Shown: positions 17,398 through 59,933 of the stretch, in pieces
Numbering within the stretch: position 1 is the first letter of the stretch
Layout of the letters: the number at the start of each line of letters is the position of its first letter
Origin: a virus
Taxonomy: Duplodnaviria; Heunggongvirae; Uroviricota; Caudoviricetes
DNA: 64,000 nucleotides
IMG/VR virus record: IMGVR_UViG_3300017705_000602
Reading direction: 5' to 3' (one strand)
Translations under genes and position numbers: made by a program
Notes under the pieces: model-generated
The model's input: the letters and a program-made list of their open reading frames with translations, nothing else
Databases searched by the model: none
What the model was told of the DNA's origin: nothing

Positions 17398-18465
17398 ATG
17401 TCATCAAACGGATTTGATAAAATTTTAAATGAATTCCAAAAGGATTGCTGGGAAGGCCTGGACCGAGTACTCGAATCCGAACGACCCGAGTGGCACAAAA
17501 TAATTATTGCAGGCCAACCAGCCGAAGTAAAAGGCCGCCGCACATATCGCGGCTACTTGTATAACAACACATTCTATTACATGGACGACCAAGGTGATGT
17601 AAAACAAGTTGATGCCTCGCGCTTGGGTAAGAAACTAGAACTCAACCTTAAAAAGTTAAAACCAAAGCGCGACCTAGATGCAGTATCGAGAATGCTCTCA
17701 ACTGCGGAAAGTCTAGACGAAGGGTTCATTACTAGCTTACCAACCGGTTGGGTCGACTGGAAAAAGAAACACGGTTTAACTAAAGCATTCGGCCAAAAAA
17801 AGCTGGATAAAGCAGTAGACATGTTTAAGCAACTCGCTAATCGTCCTAAGACAGTTAACCCTAAAAAACCGCTATTAATCGCCGCAGGCTTACTGGATAT
17901 TGACCCACGTATACTGTCACATGAACTTGAGAGTCGTGGCATTGACCCTGATCCAGTTCGTGTCGAAGAAGGCAATGCAGAAACCAAACAGCAACGTCCA
18001 GACCGCGGAAACCCACGCAAGCTAAAAACAACAAACACCATGGGCTTGTCTCGTGCTATCGATCAGAGCAAAGACTTTAGTGTAGTCAAGTCGCATTACT
18101 TGTCTAACGGTTTGGTTGCACTAGTAAGAGACGATAACGGTGATGCATACGAAGTTACAATAAAGCCATCATACATGGGCGATTACTTTGATGCCGAACG
18201 TGGCGTAGCCGAAGATATCAACGAAGCACAATATCCTGGTGCAATTGGATATGAAGAAGTTGTAAAGTTTCATCAGCATGCTAACCCACAAGAACTTGAA
18301 GCTTTTAACAAATTAATTGATAGCGGACGCAATGACGAAGCATGGCACATGGTAAACAGTACTGTGCAATCGCAATCTGGCATCGAAGAAGAAATAAACG
18401 ATAAGTATGCTACCATGAACAGCAAGCCTGACGACTATTTAGATGGAGATAAATTCGTCGGATAG
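17398..18465 (+). CDS. Putative internal head protein (mosaic of small domains)
   Basis: AAGGA RBS; domains separated by xxE(S/G/A) sites. Confidence 0.6.
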   Translation: MSSNGFDKILNEFQKDCWEGLDRVLESERPEWHKIIIAGQPAEVKGRRTYRGYLYNNTFYYMDDQGDVKQVDASRLGKKLELNLKKLKPKRDLDAVSRMLSTAESLDEGFITSLPTGWVDWKKKHGLTKAFGQKKLDKAVDMFKQLANRPKTVNPKKPLLIAAGLLDIDPRILSHELESRGIDPDPVRVEEGNAETKQQRPDRGNPRKLKTTNTMGLSRAIDQSKDFSVVKSHYLSNGLVALVRDDNGDAYEVTIKPSYMGDYFDAERGVAEDINEAQYPGAIGYEEVVKFHQHANPQELEAFNKLIDSGRNDEAWHMVNSTVQSQSGIEEEINDKYATMNSKPDDYLDGDKFVG

Positions 18466-41851: not shown

Positions 41852-43063
41852 TTGAATAAAGCCGAAGTAGTTTGCTCATTCTGTGGCAAGAACGGACGAC
41901 AAGTAAAAAAACTAGTTGCCGCGCCACCGGATGTAAACGAACACCATGCACATATTTGCGATAATTGTATAGATATGTGCAAAGACATTATTACCAAACC
42001 GGTTTTAAAAGATGTCGATCAGCTTACACCTGCAATCATACACGAAAAACTTGACCAGTATGTTATTGGACAGGAAGAAACCAAAATCACAATAAGTGTT
42101 GCAGTATACAATCACGTAAAGCGTGTAAATAACATATCAAAGGCCAAGTATGAAAAATCGAATATACTCATGATTGGTCCTACTGGCACAGGCAAAACGC
42201 TTATTGCTAAAACCGTTGCTGAAGCAGTTGGTGTACCATATGCAATTGTCGATGCAACTTCATTGACTGAGTCTGGCTATTCGGGCGATGACGTCGAATC
42301 GATTATATATTCATTGTGCGAAAACGCAGAGTGGGATATAGAAAAAGCACAACGCGGTATTGTGTTTGTTGATGAAATTGACAAGATTGCAAAATCGTCG
42401 GATAACTCTACTAGTTCAGTAAGAGATGTGTCAGGCGCAGGCGTACAGCAAGCATTACTGAAACTTGCCGAAGGCAAGATTATTACCATTGAGCAACCTC
42501 AAACGCATAATCGCATCATGTTTGATACTTCTCACATTTTGTTTATTGCTAGCGGTGCGTTCGTTGGTCTCGACGATGTAATAAACGAAAGATTAAAAAC
42601 GCCCAGGATTGGGTTTAGCACACACGATGATCAACCGTCGGTAGTAAACATTAACGAAATTGAACCGGACGATTTAGAAAAGTACGGAATGATTCCTGAG
42701 TTCATTGGTCGATTCCCGGTTGTTACTGTGCTTGAAAACTTAGACGAAGATTTGCTTTATAGAATTTTAGTCGAGCCTGAGAATTCAATTTCTTCACAGT
42801 ATCAAAGTATTTTTGATTTAGAAGGTGTTGAGTTAAGCTTTGATGATAAATACTTTAGGACATTAGCTAACAGCGGGTTCCAAAAGAAAACTGGTGCTAG
42901 AGGACTTAGATCAGTTATCGAACGCGACTTACAAACAGTGCAATACGATTTGCCCGACTTAGCTAAAAAACATGGTGTAAAGAAAATCAATGTTGATGCC
43001 CAGGGCGTCATACACTATGATAAAAAACGTACAAGAGCTAAGAAATCAGTCAATGAGAAATAA
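41852..43063 (+). CDS. clpX: ClpX AAA+ unfoldase
   Basis: CSFCG...CDNC zinc finger, GPTGTGKT, VDEIDKI, RDVSG, IGF loop. Confidence 0.95.
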   Translation: MNKAEVVCSFCGKNGRQVKKLVAAPPDVNEHHAHICDNCIDMCKDIITKPVLKDVDQLTPAIIHEKLDQYVIGQEETKITISVAVYNHVKRVNNISKAKYEKSNILMIGPTGTGKTLIAKTVAEAVGVPYAIVDATSLTESGYSGDDVESIIYSLCENAEWDIEKAQRGIVFVDEIDKIAKSSDNSTSSVRDVSGAGVQQALLKLAEGKIITIEQPQTHNRIMFDTSHILFIASGAFVGLDDVINERLKTPRIGFSTHDDQPSVVNINEIEPDDLEKYGMIPEFIGRFPVVTVLENLDEDLLYRILVEPENSISSQYQSIFDLEGVELSFDDKYFRTLANSGFQKKTGARGLRSVIERDLQTVQYDLPDLAKKHGVKKINVDAQGVIHYDKKRTRAKKSVNEK

Positions 43064-43295
43064 CAACAACAGATTCCCGGTAAGTGTATCGGGAGTTTCG
43101 GTCGAAATTACAGATGACAATTTTAATCGTGCTATGCGCCAGTTCACCCGAAAGGCACAAGAAGCAGGAATTGTAAAAAGTTGTAAAGACCGTATGCATT
43201 ACGAAAAGCCTTCGTCTGTCAAACAACGAAAACGAAAGGCAGCTCGTAAACGTTGGCTCAAAAAACAAAGTAAAATGGAGCCAACAAAAAGATAG
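43053..43295 (+). CDS. rpsU: Ribosomal protein bS21
   Basis: NFNRAMRQFTRK...GIV...RMHYEKPS...RKRKAARKR; start ATG 43053. Confidence 0.85.
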   Translation: MRNNNNRFPVSVSGVSVEITDDNFNRAMRQFTRKAQEAGIVKSCKDRMHYEKPSSVKQRKRKAARKRWLKKQSKMEPTKR

Positions 43296-43323
43296 CGATT
43301 GCGGATGGTCCGGATCGCTTTTT
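43294..43323 (+). terminator. Hairpin plus T-run after rpsU (terminator, or 5' hairpin of the hsp20 leader)
   Basis: AGCGAT-t-g-CGGA-tgg-TCCG-g-ATCGCT-TTTT. Confidence 0.55.
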
Positions 43324-43329
43324 AAAATA

Positions 43330-43356
43330 AAACTTGCTTAAAAGGAGTTTACAATG
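43330..43356 (+). promoter_or_regulatory. ROSE-like RNA thermometer hairpin over the hsp20 SD
   Basis: AAACUUGCU-UAAA-AGGAGUUU: UUGCU pairs with the SD leaving a bulged G. Confidence 0.7.
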
Positions 43357-43788
43357 AAGCAACGTAGAATCAATGCAGATAGTGTTAATAGTTTTCTATT
43401 AGGGTTCGAGAACATGTTCGAAGATGTGTTTAACAAAGGATACCCAGCAAACAACTATCCACCTCACAACATTTACAAATTGTCCAAGGATGATCCGTAT
43501 TCCGATATGGTAATCGAGATTGCACTTGCAGGCATGCGTAAAGAAGATATATCAATTACACTCACTGACCACGATACACTCAAAGTAGAATACGATAAAG
43601 AAGACACACCACACACTGACTTCAGCTTTATCCATAAGGGTATTGCAAATCGTAAATTTACACTCGAGTGGCGTGTTAACAAAGACCTTGAAGTCGAAGA
43701 AGCGGAGTTCCGCGACGGCATTCTCAAGATCAAGATTGCAAACCACGCAGGTCAAAACAAGCACACACAAAAAATTAACATAAAGTAG
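43354..43788 (+). CDS. Small heat-shock protein (Hsp20, IbpA-like)
   Basis: NYPPHNIY, IEIALAG, HKGIANRKF, AEFRDGILKI. Confidence 0.93.
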   Translation: MKQRRINADSVNSFLLGFENMFEDVFNKGYPANNYPPHNIYKLSKDDPYSDMVIEIALAGMRKEDISITLTDHDTLKVEYDKEDTPHTDFSFIHKGIANRKFTLEWRVNKDLEVEEAEFRDGILKIKIANHAGQNKHTQKINIK

Positions 43789-43817
43789 TTGACTCATCTC
43801 TAGTTGTACTTTAGTAT
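43789..43817 (+). promoter_or_regulatory. sigma70-type promoter
   Basis: TTGACT-17 nt-TAGTAT. Confidence 0.65.
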
Positions 43818-43850
43818 AAAAACAGTCGAAATATACTGAGGTATAAGATT

Positions 43851-44153
43851 ATGTCGTCAAGTGTAATAACTAAACCAAAGGTCGAAGTGCAAGCTGTTAA
43901 AGCAATGCCCTGGACTGTAACTTTTCACAATGACGACCGTACTACATTTGATTGTGTAGTAGAAATCTTAGTATCAATAATTGGCAAGTCTTATAACGAG
44001 GCTTGCCAATTAACACTTCGTATACATAATGACGGTGCCGCAGTAGTTGCACGCGAAACACAAGAAATTGCCGAAACATTTAAAACCGAAGCAATCTCTT
44101 ACGCTCGCCAACATGGATATCCGTTAAAAATTACAATAGAACGCGATGACTAA
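43851..44153 (+). CDS. clpS: ClpS N-degron adaptor
   Basis: VTFHNDDRTTFDCVVEIL, IHNDGAAVV, YPLKITIE. Confidence 0.9.
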   Translation: MSSSVITKPKVEVQAVKAMPWTVTFHNDDRTTFDCVVEILVSIIGKSYNEACQLTLRIHNDGAAVVARETQEIAETFKTEAISYARQHGYPLKITIERDD

Positions 44154-44157
44154 AAAA

Positions 44158-44165
44158 GATAAATA
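44158..44165 (+). promoter_or_regulatory. Late-type promoter motif, probably giving a leaderless mRNA
   Basis: GATAAATA 5 nt before ATG 44171; no SD. Confidence 0.6.
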
Positions 44166-44170
44166 TTTTT

Positions 44171-44716
44171 ATGAAACTCAGGGATGTTTCGGACAAAGAG
44201 CTAATCTTTGAATCCGACAAAGACTTTAAACAGGTTTCACTACCTGTTAAATCAGACGCACTAGATCCAGTATTATCTAAGGCTAATGTAGACTATCATT
44301 ACCGAACCTTGCACAGAGGTTACATAGATAAAGCAAACGATGGATCGGACGATGCGTTTATTATCGGCGGCGCCGAACTGCATAATCTTTATTTCGAGCA
44401 ATTAACTACTCCGCATACTAAGAAGCCAAAAGACCGAATTCAGTTTTTAATTGAAGATCGCTTTGGCAGCTATTCCGATTTCCAGCTACTGTTCAAAGAC
44501 CAAGCATCGTCTATACAAGGTTCAGGTTGGTGTTATCTTAGTAAATCGGGCGAAATAAAAACAATAAAAAATCACGCACCGAAAAATGATGTGTGCCTTA
44601 TCATAGACATGTGGGAACATGCCTATTATTTGGACTACGGTCCGGATAAAAAGAAGTACATTGACAACTCTTGGAAGATTGTAAACTGGGACATTGTCAA
44701 TGGTAGACTATCGTAA
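44171..44716 (+). CDS. Fe/Mn superoxide dismutase-like protein
   Basis: YHY, LHNLYF, GSGW, DMWEHAYY: all four metal ligands present. Confidence 0.9.
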   Translation: MKLRDVSDKELIFESDKDFKQVSLPVKSDALDPVLSKANVDYHYRTLHRGYIDKANDGSDDAFIIGGAELHNLYFEQLTTPHTKKPKDRIQFLIEDRFGSYSDFQLLFKDQASSIQGSGWCYLSKSGEIKTIKNHAPKNDVCLIIDMWEHAYYLDYGPDKKKYIDNSWKIVNWDIVNGRLS

Positions 44717-48014: not shown

Positions 48015-50000
48015 ATGTCGGACATTAGAAAATGGATGCAGATTTTATCCGAAGACAGTATCGAACAAGGTTCCGCGGTCAAGTTGTCCGATGACTATGG
48101 CGGCGGAATTGGAACATTTGAACGACTGTCTGAAGATAATCCTGATATCGCAGTTATAAACGTTAAAGGTACTGCACAAGAGATACCTTTAACTTCTCTA
48201 CAAAAGGTTCTTGATCAAGATCACGAATACGGTGAAGACCCTTGTTATAATATAACCCCTGATCTTTTTGAGCCAGGCGCTAGTGTTCGTGTTAAAAACC
48301 TTTACGGTGGTGGTACTGGCGATGGCTACGGTGTGTTTGTTGCTTATTCAACAGACGGTCAAACAGCAATTGTTAATGTTGACAGCGAAGAAAGATCAAT
48401 ACCAGTTGATTTAGTGTATCCTGCAGACGAACAATGTGCAAAAGATAATTTTGCATCTGTTGGTAGCGATGGATCACAGTCACCTTTCACATCAGCTGGA
48501 GATAACGTACAAGATAAAGGAATATCAAAAATGAGCGACATGGAACGCTGGATGGATGCAGTATCGAATCCTAAGCAAGCCCCAGTTCAAGAAACTGAGT
48601 GCAACGATTGCGATTGCGGAGATTACGAGTGTACTACTTGTTTTCCGTTGTCCGAAGATGAATTAAGTTACGAAAGTATGTGTTCTGAAGAACCTGCCGC
48701 TGAAGAAGAAGATCTAGTTGAACTAGACATTGACAACAGCGAACATTACCCAGAAGACGATCTTGAAGACGAACCGGAACCACGTGTTGGCGATGACGAA
48801 GCAGTTGATATCGATTTAGGCGATGCAATGCCGTATGATAACACATTCGATGAACCGGACGCAGGTGTAGAATTAGGTGCATCAGAAGACGTTTCGGATT
48901 TACTTAGCAAGATCGATTATGTGCAAAACATGGGCATGTCAATGACTGATAGACATTACGATGTCGACCAGTTAATGAAAATGAAGCCGGACGCTATTAA
49001 ACGTATCTATGCTAAGGTAATTGGCGAAGCAATGGGCGAAAGCATCGAAGCAGATTTATTTGCAGAAGATCTTGGAAACAGCAGTGACGACGGTTCGGAC
49101 AGCTTATTAGTTGGCGACCCCGACGAAGGCAGAACATACACTTTAGTTGAGCCAGGTGACACTGTAATGTTTAAAGGGCATCAACTGGTTTATCAAGGCT
49201 TTTATCCTAAAGATGAAAACTATGCAGTTGTTGAGCTTAAAGGTCAACGAAAAATAGTTCCGATTGTGGACTTTACCAAGCATGCGGTACCAGGTGAAAT
49301 GGTTGAAACTGCATCAGGGTCAGTCAGTGTCGGTCCAGGTCTTGGTAAAATTCAAGATCGAGCAGGCGTATACGAAGCAAGCTCAATTGACCCTGCTGAA
49401 CTTAAATCGCTAGAAAGAATGGATGTCGAATCAGCTAAAGCAAAAGCCGCTGAAATGATACAAGGTTCTAAAACTTCCGATAAGCGTAAAGCACAGTTAG
49501 TACATAACGTGAGCAAATCGCGCAATGTTGTACAAGTATTACAGTTGATGTATAACTTGATGCTGTCGGGCGATGGCTTATCTACTGTAGGCTCTAAATG
49601 GCAGAAGAAGTACAACGAAGCGGTACAACCGCACCGCGGGAACGATACCGAAATATTCCGTGAGTTCAACGACGATGGCGAACTAGATCGTATGCGCCAG
49701 CTTGCTGGACTACGCGACGACGGCATTAACTCTGGTGCGCTTACACGCGATGACTTTAAAGATATGTTCTGGGATTACTGGGATAAGTCTAGCCCATCGT
49801 CACAGCATCAGTATCTAACAGCAGTGTTAGGCGATGACACTAATATCGAAGACTTTAGTGATGCGGCAGTTGAAGTGCTTGATCACATATTGAATGCTCA
49901 AGATCCAGCAGTTGTAGACAAGCAATTGCACATGCTACGTAGAATTGGAATGCCATTAATGTCAGTTTGTCCTGACACCGGCGAGTTTTATCCTGCATAA
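48015..50000 (+). CDS. Large acidic putative internal head protein
   Basis: Late motif upstream; three SH3/KOW-like beta repeats; RMRQLAGL motif. Confidence 0.6.
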   Translation: MSDIRKWMQILSEDSIEQGSAVKLSDDYGGGIGTFERLSEDNPDIAVINVKGTAQEIPLTSLQKVLDQDHEYGEDPCYNITPDLFEPGASVRVKNLYGGGTGDGYGVFVAYSTDGQTAIVNVDSEERSIPVDLVYPADEQCAKDNFASVGSDGSQSPFTSAGDNVQDKGISKMSDMERWMDAVSNPKQAPVQETECNDCDCGDYECTTCFPLSEDELSYESMCSEEPAAEEEDLVELDIDNSEHYPEDDLEDEPEPRVGDDEAVDIDLGDAMPYDNTFDEPDAGVELGASEDVSDLLSKIDYVQNMGMSMTDRHYDVDQLMKMKPDAIKRIYAKVIGEAMGESIEADLFAEDLGNSSDDGSDSLLVGDPDEGRTYTLVEPGDTVMFKGHQLVYQGFYPKDENYAVVELKGQRKIVPIVDFTKHAVPGEMVETASGSVSVGPGLGKIQDRAGVYEASSIDPAELKSLERMDVESAKAKAAEMIQGSKTSDKRKAQLVHNVSKSRNVVQVLQLMYNLMLSGDGLSTVGSKWQKKYNEAVQPHRGNDTEIFREFNDDGELDRMRQLAGLRDDGINSGALTRDDFKDMFWDYWDKSSPSSQHQYLTAVLGDDTNIEDFSDAAVEVLDHILNAQDPAVVDKQLHMLRRIGMPLMSVCPDTGEFYPA

Positions 50001-50012
50001 CATGCAATAACA

Positions 50013-50038
50013 AAAAAAGGCGCATTTGCGCCTTTTTT
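50013..50038. terminator. Bidirectional rho-independent terminator
   Basis: AAAAAAGGCGC-attt-GCGCCTTTTTT. Confidence 0.9.
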
Positions 50039-50039
50039 A

Positions 50040-50068
50040 TTGACTTTATTTTAGGACTCGTGTATACT
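50040..50068 (+). promoter_or_regulatory. sigma70-type promoter
   Basis: TTGACT-17 nt-TATACT right after the terminator. Confidence 0.8.
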
Positions 50069-50093
50069 AGCTAGGTAATACAAGGAGTATCGT

Positions 50094-50363
50094 ATGCAAG
50101 TATCTAAACATGCTGAAAAAAGAATACGTAAACGCTTAGGGATACCACGTAAAGCAATTGCAAAGTTTATCGATGAAGCCGAAACACGCGGCACACCTTT
50201 AAACCAATTCAAGGGCAGAGTAAAGAAATTTTACGATGCAATATCAATTAGACACAGTGCCGGAAACAAAACATTTAGTTATCGTGACTATCTGTTTATT
50301 ATGCAAGACGATATATTAATCACTGTGTACGAAGTTCCAAAATATCTACAAGGAAAAGTATGA
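50094..50363 (+). CDS. Small basic hypothetical protein
   Basis: AAGGAG RBS; SKHAEKRIRKR...ILITVY. Confidence 0.7.
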   Translation: MQVSKHAEKRIRKRLGIPRKAIAKFIDEAETRGTPLNQFKGRVKKFYDAISIRHSAGNKTFSYRDYLFIMQDDILITVYEVPKYLQGKV

Positions 50364-51528: not shown

Positions 51529-52149
51529 ATGTCATTAGTTCCAATGGTTATCGAACAAACTTCTAAAGGTGAGCGTTCATACGACATCTTTTCTCGCTTG
51601 TTAAAAGAACGTATTATCTTTTTAACCGGCCCTGTTGAAGATCACATGGCAAATTTAATTGTCGCACAGCTTTTGTTTTTAGACAGTGAATCAAAAACAA
51701 AGCCAGTTAGCATGTACATTGACTCACCCGGTGGCGCAGTAACAGCAGGTTTGAGCATTTACAACACCATGCAAGCAATTGGTGCTCCGGTGTATACGTA
51801 TGTAACCGGTCAAGCTTGTTCCATGGGCTCGTTTCTTGCACAAGCAGGTCATGCAGGCAATCGTTATGTAATGCCCGAATCTCGTACAATGATACATCGT
51901 GTTAGCTCAGGTACGCACGGTACAAAAGGTTCTGTGCATGTACAGGAACTTGAGATCGAAGATATCAAACGATCGTTCGAAGAAAGTCAGCGCATTAACC
52001 AGCGCCTAACTGAACTTTACGAAAAGCATAACAGCGCAGGCAAAAAATACGATGAGTTGTTTAGCACCATGAAGTTCGATACATTTATGTCGGCGCAAGA
52101 AGCTGTTGATTTCGGTCTTGCCGATAAAGTGTTTGAGAACGGTCAGTAA
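51529..52149 (+). CDS. clpP: ClpP protease
   Basis: [21 protein letters not shown] (Ser), MIH (His), DTFMS (Asp). Confidence 0.96.
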
Positions 52150-55089: not shown

Positions 55090-57121
<2,032 letters not shown>

Positions 57122-57742: not shown

Positions 57743-57795
57743 TTAGTTGGATAGACCGACTAACTTCACAAACATATAAGAGGAATTCTTATGAA
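57743..57795 (+). promoter_or_regulatory. NAD-salvage leader element, copy A
   Basis: TTAGTTGG-ATAGA-CCGACTAA hairpin, then AAACATATAAGAGGAATTCTTATGAA. Confidence 0.7.
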
Positions 57796-59861: not shown

Positions 59862-59887
59862 GAATTTGGCATTTGCCGAATGCAAGC

Positions 59888-59933
59888 CCCTGGATAGACC
59901 AGGGCATTAAACATTAAGAGGAAATCTTATGAA
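59888..59933 (+). promoter_or_regulatory. NAD-salvage leader element, copy B
   Basis: CCCTGG-ATAGA-CCAGGG hairpin, then AAACATTAAGAGGAAATCTTATGAA. Confidence 0.7.

Follow-up and report, generated by a model that had tools for sequence, protein, structure and literature searches.

The hsp20 gene of a large uncultured phage is preceded by a leader (positions 43294–43356) that we interpret, with a probability of roughly two in three, as a divergent RNA thermometer of the short, two-hairpin ROSE_3 type. A labile hairpin in this leader would occlude the Shine-Dalgarno (SD) sequence in a temperature-dependent manner and would be tuned to low temperatures. We accept the family membership because the comparative evidence is decisive; the copy in the window (the whole 64-kb stretch of phage DNA analyzed here) is weak when taken alone. 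We infer the temperature response, its set-point and the occlusion of the SD in vivo, and the proposed gating by temperature follows from homology. ROSE-like leaders as such are known; their setting in a phage is undescribed in the literature that we found, and the thermometer function of the present leader is putative. The first-pass annotation of this DNA was aware of no characterized phage ROSE elements, and a literature search likewise brought up no account of ROSE-type elements in phages.

If this reading is correct, phages import a chaperone together with its post-transcriptional control, and phage Hsp20 output would respond to temperature or protein damage independently of host transcription, which would bear on infection outcomes that shift with water temperature. 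The element is conserved across hundreds of aquatic phages, including cultured cyanophages and pelagiphages. Among these, the window copy provides a useful extreme, as it has the weakest and most AU-rich sensor hairpin of those examined and lies right behind a phage ribosomal-protein gene.

Gene neighbourhood and predicted folding

The window encodes a UvsX-like recombinase, helicases, virion and baseplate proteins, a ribonucleotide reductase and a DNA ligase. Within it, hsp20, whose assignment as a small heat-shock gene in the first-pass annotation is upheld by Pfam, is part of a co-directional block (Table 1). Within the open reading frame of the preceding S21-like gene (42990–43295), an ATG lies in frame at 43053, overlapping the clpX stop codon. 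The TAG stop codon of the S21-like gene (43293–43295) shares two bases with the start of hairpin I, and 58 nt separate this stop codon from the hsp20 AUG.

The proteostasis set of this phage is unusually full, comprising ClpX, ClpS, ClpP, Cpn60/GroEL, Hsp20 and a Fe/Mn superoxide dismutase, in addition to ribosomal protein S21. A 103-aa ORF (55188–55499) overlaps the groEL start in the way a co-chaperonin gene would, and has no Pfam match at 1e-3. Searches for DNA similarity between 42900–44200 and cultured phages found none, and the protein encoded at 17398–18465 had no match in phages.

Table 1. Positions of the leader elements and neighbouring genes in the window
Feature	Positions	Strand	Description
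clpX	41852–43063	+	First gene of the co-directional block with the S21-like gene, hsp20, clpS and sod
S21-like gene	43053–43295	+	Pfam Ribosomal_S21, 1.5e-14; directly 5′ of the hsp20 leader
Hairpin I	43294–43319	+	RNAfold, −11.9 kcal/mol at 37 °C
A/U spacer	43320–43329	+	UUUUAAAAUA; between hairpins I and II
Hairpin II	43330–43350	+	Proposed thermosensor; 5′ arm AAACUUGCU, loop UAAA, 3′ arm AGGAGUUU
ROSE anti-SD CUUGCU	43333–43338	+	Faces the SD AGGAG
Shine-Dalgarno AGGAG	43343–43347	+	6 nt 5′ of the AUG
hsp20	43354–43788	+	144 aa; Pfam HSP20, 3.4e-9
AAGCAAC, hsp20 codons 2–4	43357–43363	+	Alternative partner of the anti-SD CUUGCUU (43333–43339)
clpS	43851–44153	+	Same co-directional block as hsp20
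Fe/Mn superoxide dismutase gene (sod)	44171–44716	+	Same co-directional block as hsp20
Proteostasis genes	41852–44716, 51529–52149, 55188–57121		Within the window

The leader is predicted to form two hairpins. Hairpin I has a 7-bp outer stem (A43294–U43300 with G43313–U43319) with U43300·G43313 as its closing pair, a bulged G43301, and an inner stem (C43302–A43305 with U43309–G43312, the first pair being C43302–G43312) capped by a UGG loop. Hairpin II starts with three A–U pairs (A43330–A43332 with U43348–U43350), followed by C43333–G43347, U43334–A43346 and a U43335·G43345 wobble; above the wobble G43336 is bulged, and C43337–G43344 and U43338–A43343 complete the helix. This agrees with the first-pass annotation, which had described UUGCU (43334–43338) paired to the AGGAG, G43336 bulged with a U·G wobble alongside, and a second hairpin just upstream. 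The AUG (43354–43356) is unpaired in this ROSE fold. The calculated energy of hairpin II is −5.8 kcal/mol at 15 °C, −4.2 at 25 °C and −2.6 at 37 °C, and deleting the G43336 bulge in silico stabilizes it by 3.5–4 kcal/mol.

The same anti-SD can also pair with codons 2–4 of hsp20, in a helix that would place both the SD and the AUG in an open loop. Of the temperatures computed, only 5 and 15 °C give the ROSE fold as the minimum free energy structure, and the helix with codons 2–4 takes this place at 25 and 37 °C, the two being isoenergetic within 0.4 kcal/mol. In a nearest-neighbour ensemble that includes the coding sequence, the ROSE register accounts for 6–12%, versus 32–60% for the codon helix. 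The closest relative (L001) keeps a 6-bp anti-SD/codon helix (1461–1467 with ~1489–1494) despite a different N-terminal protein sequence, and the alternative helix is absent in the other clades of relatives. Only ~10 of 53 leaders of the relatives have an ensemble dominated by the exact ROSE register, although in most cases the predictions show a paired SD at 5 °C that opens as the temperature rises.

The bare motif occurs at close to its chance frequency in the window: CTYRCT-N3-9-GGAG occurs 3 times (1.2 expected), and its extended form CTYRCT-N3-9-GGAG-N4-10-ATG once (0.21 expected per shuffled window). The predicted SD occlusion of the hsp20 leader ranks 18th among 72 leaders in the window. 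Judged on the window alone, the leader is not beyond chance, given the weakness of hairpin II, the near-chance motif counts, the rank of its SD occlusion, a ROSE_3 score below the gathering threshold (see below) and the competing helix.

Conservation of the element in phage relatives

The relatives comprise 80 IMG/VR loci with Hsp20 homologues (29–57% identity), for which 265 kb of sequence was fetched. CUYRCU-N3-9-GGAG directly precedes the hsp20 start in all 80 loci and matches only once elsewhere in these 265 kb on both strands, and CUYRCU is invariant in an alignment of 53 leaders. The core of hairpin II is fixed across 34 distinct versions, as expected from one of its arms being the SD. 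Among these 34 unique hairpins, the pair below the core covaries (A–U 5, U–A 21, C–G 5, G–U 1), as does the pair above it (U–A 25, A–U 3), and the third core pair is U·G in 30 and C–G in 4. All 34 have a purine bulge (G 22, A 12), and none forms a perfect, bulge-free helix. Hairpin I shares one geometry in 52 of 59 relatives, with a closing pair that is U·G (34) or C–G (12) and a single purine bulge. Its inner C–G pair is present in 47 of 47, and the outer pairs all covary among G–C, A–U, U–A and C–G. The window's hairpin I matches this family shape exactly.

These pair counts were obtained as anchored counts in Python with no covariance model, and model-fitted alignments were used besides. 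Three MAFFT alignments (A1, A2 and A3) were dropped for pair counting because gaps were misplaced in both hairpins. A first covariance model (R1), with a training set of a single clade, proved too narrow and was used just to seed a second one (R2). For the latter, 38 hits were taken, among which neither the window nor its nearest relative (L001) was included. R2 has a single match in the 64-kb window (43319–43359; 22.8 bits, E 0.016), which lacks hairpin I because the window's spacer is longer than that of the training clade. A second R2 match in one relative (L056, 1349–1401) was rejected as not ROSE, being a G/C hairpin after the preceding gene without an anti-SD/SD pair. In alignment A6 (53 sequences), the proportion of paired cells is 98.8%, and compensatory changes are seen at 9 of the 14 pairs. 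None of 500 shuffles reach the observed values, and slid controls are 49–80% paired; A6 was fitted to the model and is therefore biased towards structure, with the anchored, model-free counts in agreement. The combination that the first-pass annotation took as the ROSE signature (U(U/C)GCU, a bulged G and an extra 5′ hairpin) is present in the window, and its architecture is conserved with compensatory changes before distant phage hsp20 genes.

The closest relative is syntenic with the window (membrane protein, clpX, hsp20, clpS, sod) and has no S21 gene, its leader beginning 12 nt 3′ of the clpX stop codon. The presence or absence of S21 (window 43053–43295 versus 1408–1425 in the relative) is an indel whose position coincides exactly with the 5′ edge of hairpin I, which indicates that the leader travels with hsp20 regardless of the upstream gene. 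Of eight cultured phages that were checked, seven carry the element on hsp20: P-SSM2, S-SKS1, HTVC008M, HTVC115P, Melnitz, Mosig and Campylobacter phage A11a. Several of them have a late-type promoter (TATAAATA) just 5′ of the element. In Vibrio phage PWH3a-P1 (L085), the region 5′ of the hsp20 start at 398 lacks both the CUYRCU anti-SD and a bulged hairpin I, so the element is not universal on phage hsp20 genes. Ten relatives (L005, L012, L014, L022, L026, L027, L041, L046, L047 and L056) have three-hairpin leaders, in which a small extra hairpin of the GGGCAUAGGGCCC type is located between the bulged hairpin I and the sensor, recalling classical multi-hairpin ROSE elements.

A composite descriptor was written from the relatives, combining a family-type hairpin I (closing U·G or C–G, single purine bulge, inner C–G) with CUYRCU-N3-9-GGAG, a paired flank and ATG. 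Its sole match in the window, on both strands, is 43296–43356. A family-type hairpin I lies near only ~0.25% of random positions, and the composite is expected ~2e-4 times per window (the product of the motif and hairpin rates, with ~0.4 assumed for the flanking pair). The composite of hairpin I, motif and flanking pair is beyond chance. Further copies in the window, for example before groEL, clpP, clpX or clpS, were found neither by motif nor by model R2 nor by Rfam scan.

These comparisons also bear on a terminator reading of the leader. Starting at the S21 stop codon, hairpin I runs directly into UUUU and then A-rich sequence, which gives it a terminator-like look, and the spacer between the hairpins contains a −10-like TAAAAT (43323–43328). 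Hairpin I might accordingly be an intrinsic terminator of the clpX–S21 transcript, with hsp20 transcription starting 3′ of the hairpin and the SD complementarity arising by chance in an AT-rich leader, as the near-chance frequency of the bare anti-SD motif in the window would allow. We consider this highly improbable: the hsp20 genes of the relatives, including the S21-less one, likewise have the anti-SD and the bulged hairpin I in front of them, there with no U run, a terminator scan of the window did not call hairpin I, and the composite is far rarer than the bare motif. A true T run after hairpin I is found in the window alone among 51 unique relatives. With this UUUU run peculiar to the window copy, hairpin I may perhaps also act as a partial terminator of the S21 transcript. 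An internal promoter using the TAAAAT at 43323 was judged unlikely, as its −35 region is poor and the relatives have no room for one between the hairpins.

The mRNA probably starts 5′ of 43294, in or before the S21 gene, making the element probably intercistronic. In the window, a late-promoter-like ATAAATA is absent directly 5′ of hairpin I; the nearest one (42846, inside clpX) was set aside as uninformative because it falls in a conserved coding stretch (FDDKYF). In 34 of 51 relatives, there is no promoter-like hexamer within 30 nt, and hairpin I follows an upstream stop codon at a distance of a few bases, so that an intercistronic position is common in the family.

Across the window, the (T)TGATAAATAC / ATAAATA motif has 17 sites on the + strand (e.g. 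8615, 12472, 18965, 21196, 24761, 40888, 44159 and 47982) and 2 on the − strand. About 11 of the 17 + strand sites are positioned 12–70 nt 5′ of a gene start, and the motif resembles a T4-type late promoter (TATAAATA-like). One base past the hsp20 stop codon and ahead of clpS there is a sigma-70-like promoter match (43789–43817; TTGACT, 17 nt, TAGTAT). No terminator-like hairpin was seen 3′ of hsp20, and the clpS leader contains a predicted hairpin (CAGU...ACUG) that extends into its SD.

Relation to known RNA thermometers

RNA thermometers are known as bacterial devices, with lambda cIII as the classic phage example. Lambda cIII and the present leader share a setting in phage mRNA, where translation is set by temperature-sensitive alternative structures around the start site. 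However, cIII is unrelated in sequence and design, has no ROSE motif, and controls a lysis–lysogeny gene rather than a chaperone.

The first-pass annotation had proposed a search with the Rfam ROSE models as a check. ROSE_3 (RF02523) was the sole thermoregulator family with a match, its alignment covering the full model (1–69) at 43292–43359. The 17.5 bits of this match fall short of the gathering score of 43, and its E value of 0.31 reflects that only 401 nt were searched. An Rfam scan of the whole window with E values up to 10 returned no ROSE match, and neither did the classical ROSE (RF00435) and ROSE_2 (RF01832) models against the window at the same limit. At the same place in relatives, ROSE_3 aligns along its whole length and scores 38.9, 32.0, 29.4, 27.6 and 23.5 bits, including the GAUGCC...GGGUC core of hairpin I, and one relative (L006) reaches 26.5 bits on ROSE_2.

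Judged by its consensus, ROSE_3 corresponds to the ROSE-like thermometers of Pseudomonas ibpA, which are short and have two hairpins. For these elements, the two-hairpin design is a proven thermometer in which hairpin II alone is sufficient, hairpin I does not melt and the AUG is unpaired (PMC3669281). Their sensor hairpins have energies of −4.1 to −7.6 kcal/mol, with G–C clamp pairs flanking the core (Krajewski et al. 2013, PMC3669281). Disruption of hairpin I derepressed the thermometer, and a stabilizing role for hairpin I has been discussed (PMC3669281). The phage leader shares with them the two hairpins before a small heat-shock gene, a G+C-rich hairpin I with a U·G pair, a bulged G and a C–G pair, a U(U/C)GCU anti-SD imperfectly paired to the SD in hairpin II, and an unpaired AUG. 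Hairpin I of the window thereby provides the stable hairpin 5′ of the sensor, in the bulge geometry of ROSE_3. In contrast to the Pseudomonas elements, the SD/anti-SD core is flanked by A43332–U43348 and U43338–A43343 in place of G–C clamps, and hairpin II is ~2–5 kcal/mol weaker at 37 °C, falling within the Pseudomonas range only at lower temperature (15–25 °C). The phage spacer is also longer (10 nt plus an A–U extension), the element adjoins an upstream ORF and not the mapped start of a sigma-32 promoter, and the bulge can be an A in the phage family. Classical ROSE elements (Bradyrhizobium hspA, RF00435) and ROSE_2 of enterobacterial ibpA (RF01832) likewise have U(U/C)GCU, a bulged G opposite the SD and small heat-shock genes, but differ in having three or four hairpins with a long final hairpin (PMC3669281).

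Hairpin II of the window copy is very weak, and the predictions leave it mostly open whatever the temperature, which would also suit a leader that acts as a constitutive translational damper or mRNA stabilizer. Hairpin I would then protect the transcript or a processed 5′ end, compatible with the stabilizing role discussed for Pseudomonas (PMC3669281), and the weak SD hairpin would do no more than hold translation at a low, fixed level, without any temperature response of physiological relevance. The frequent location of the element right after an upstream stop codon, with 34 of 51 relatives having no promoter-like hexamer within 30 nt, fits such a role as well. We regard it as unlikely, since the labile bulge and wobble are conserved, the bulge always being a purine and the helix never perfect, a pattern expected from selection for meltability, and since its design is homologous to that of proven thermometers.

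Proposed operation and possible Hsp20 self-repression

As a ROSE_3-type thermometer, the leader would operate as follows. Hairpin I would be a stable, temperature-insensitive scaffold or 5′ stabilizer, and hairpin II would pair the anti-SD with the SD, being kept labile by the G43336 bulge, the U·G wobble and the A–U flanks. At low temperature the SD would be occluded, resulting in little Hsp20. Warming would melt hairpin II, or move the anti-SD onto codons 2–4, thereby allowing 30S subunits to bind. The low stability of hairpin II suggests a predicted set-point well below that of the Pseudomonas elements, which would fit a cool-water host. Ribosomes that terminate at the S21 stop codon should open hairpin I, as this codon and the base of the hairpin overlap. 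Together with the derepression seen in Pseudomonas when hairpin I is disrupted, this makes it conceivable that hsp20 output is coupled to S21 translation.

Besides temperature, the Hsp20 protein itself might act on the leader. IbpA represses its own translation via its ROSE-like 5′ UTR, for which R93 and an aromatic residue at position 34 are required (PMC10474464). R100 and Y35 of the window's Hsp20 align to R93 and Y34 of Escherichia coli IbpA, and both are invariant in 21 phage Hsp20s; IbpB has a Q at the R93 position. The phage system shares with IbpA self-repression a small heat-shock protein with R93 and Y34 equivalents behind a ROSE-like leader (PMC10474464). The leader could even be mainly an operator for Hsp20 self-repression, as for gamma-proteobacterial IbpA: free Hsp20 would bind the leader and block translation, aggregates would relieve the block by titrating Hsp20, and temperature would be sensed only indirectly. 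This reading, which we think improbable, draws on the two invariant residues, but the basic residues of IbpA at R97 and K98 are not kept in the window's Hsp20, where L104 and E105 take their positions. Self-repression could coexist with thermosensing. Searches for bacterial relatives of the phage Hsp20 found none in two contig scans, with the single protein and with alignment A7.

Joining these elements, the leader might form a phage-owned, two-input proteostasis switch, in which a cool-tuned ROSE hairpin that toggles with the helix at codons 2–4 is combined with aggregate-relieved Hsp20 self-repression (R100, Y35) and possibly with S21 coupling. As a whole, this scheme is speculative and rather doubtful. 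If true, it would enable the phage to raise its chaperone supply without the host heat-shock sigma factor.

Other intergenic regions of the window also contain predicted structures. Both strands of 49969–50083, in the gap between genes ending at 50000 and starting at 50094, give sub-threshold Rfam matches to STnc40 (35.8 and 29.1 bits), Leu_leader, STnc320 and isrK; this region is most likely a strong, palindromic terminator-like hairpin rather than one of those RNAs. The leaders of the genes at 57791 and 59929 (NAMPT-like), located at 57743–57790 and 59885–59928, have a common UGGAUAGACC within a hairpin whose outer stems differ, and share a near-identical AUUAAGAGGAAnnCUUAUG start region.
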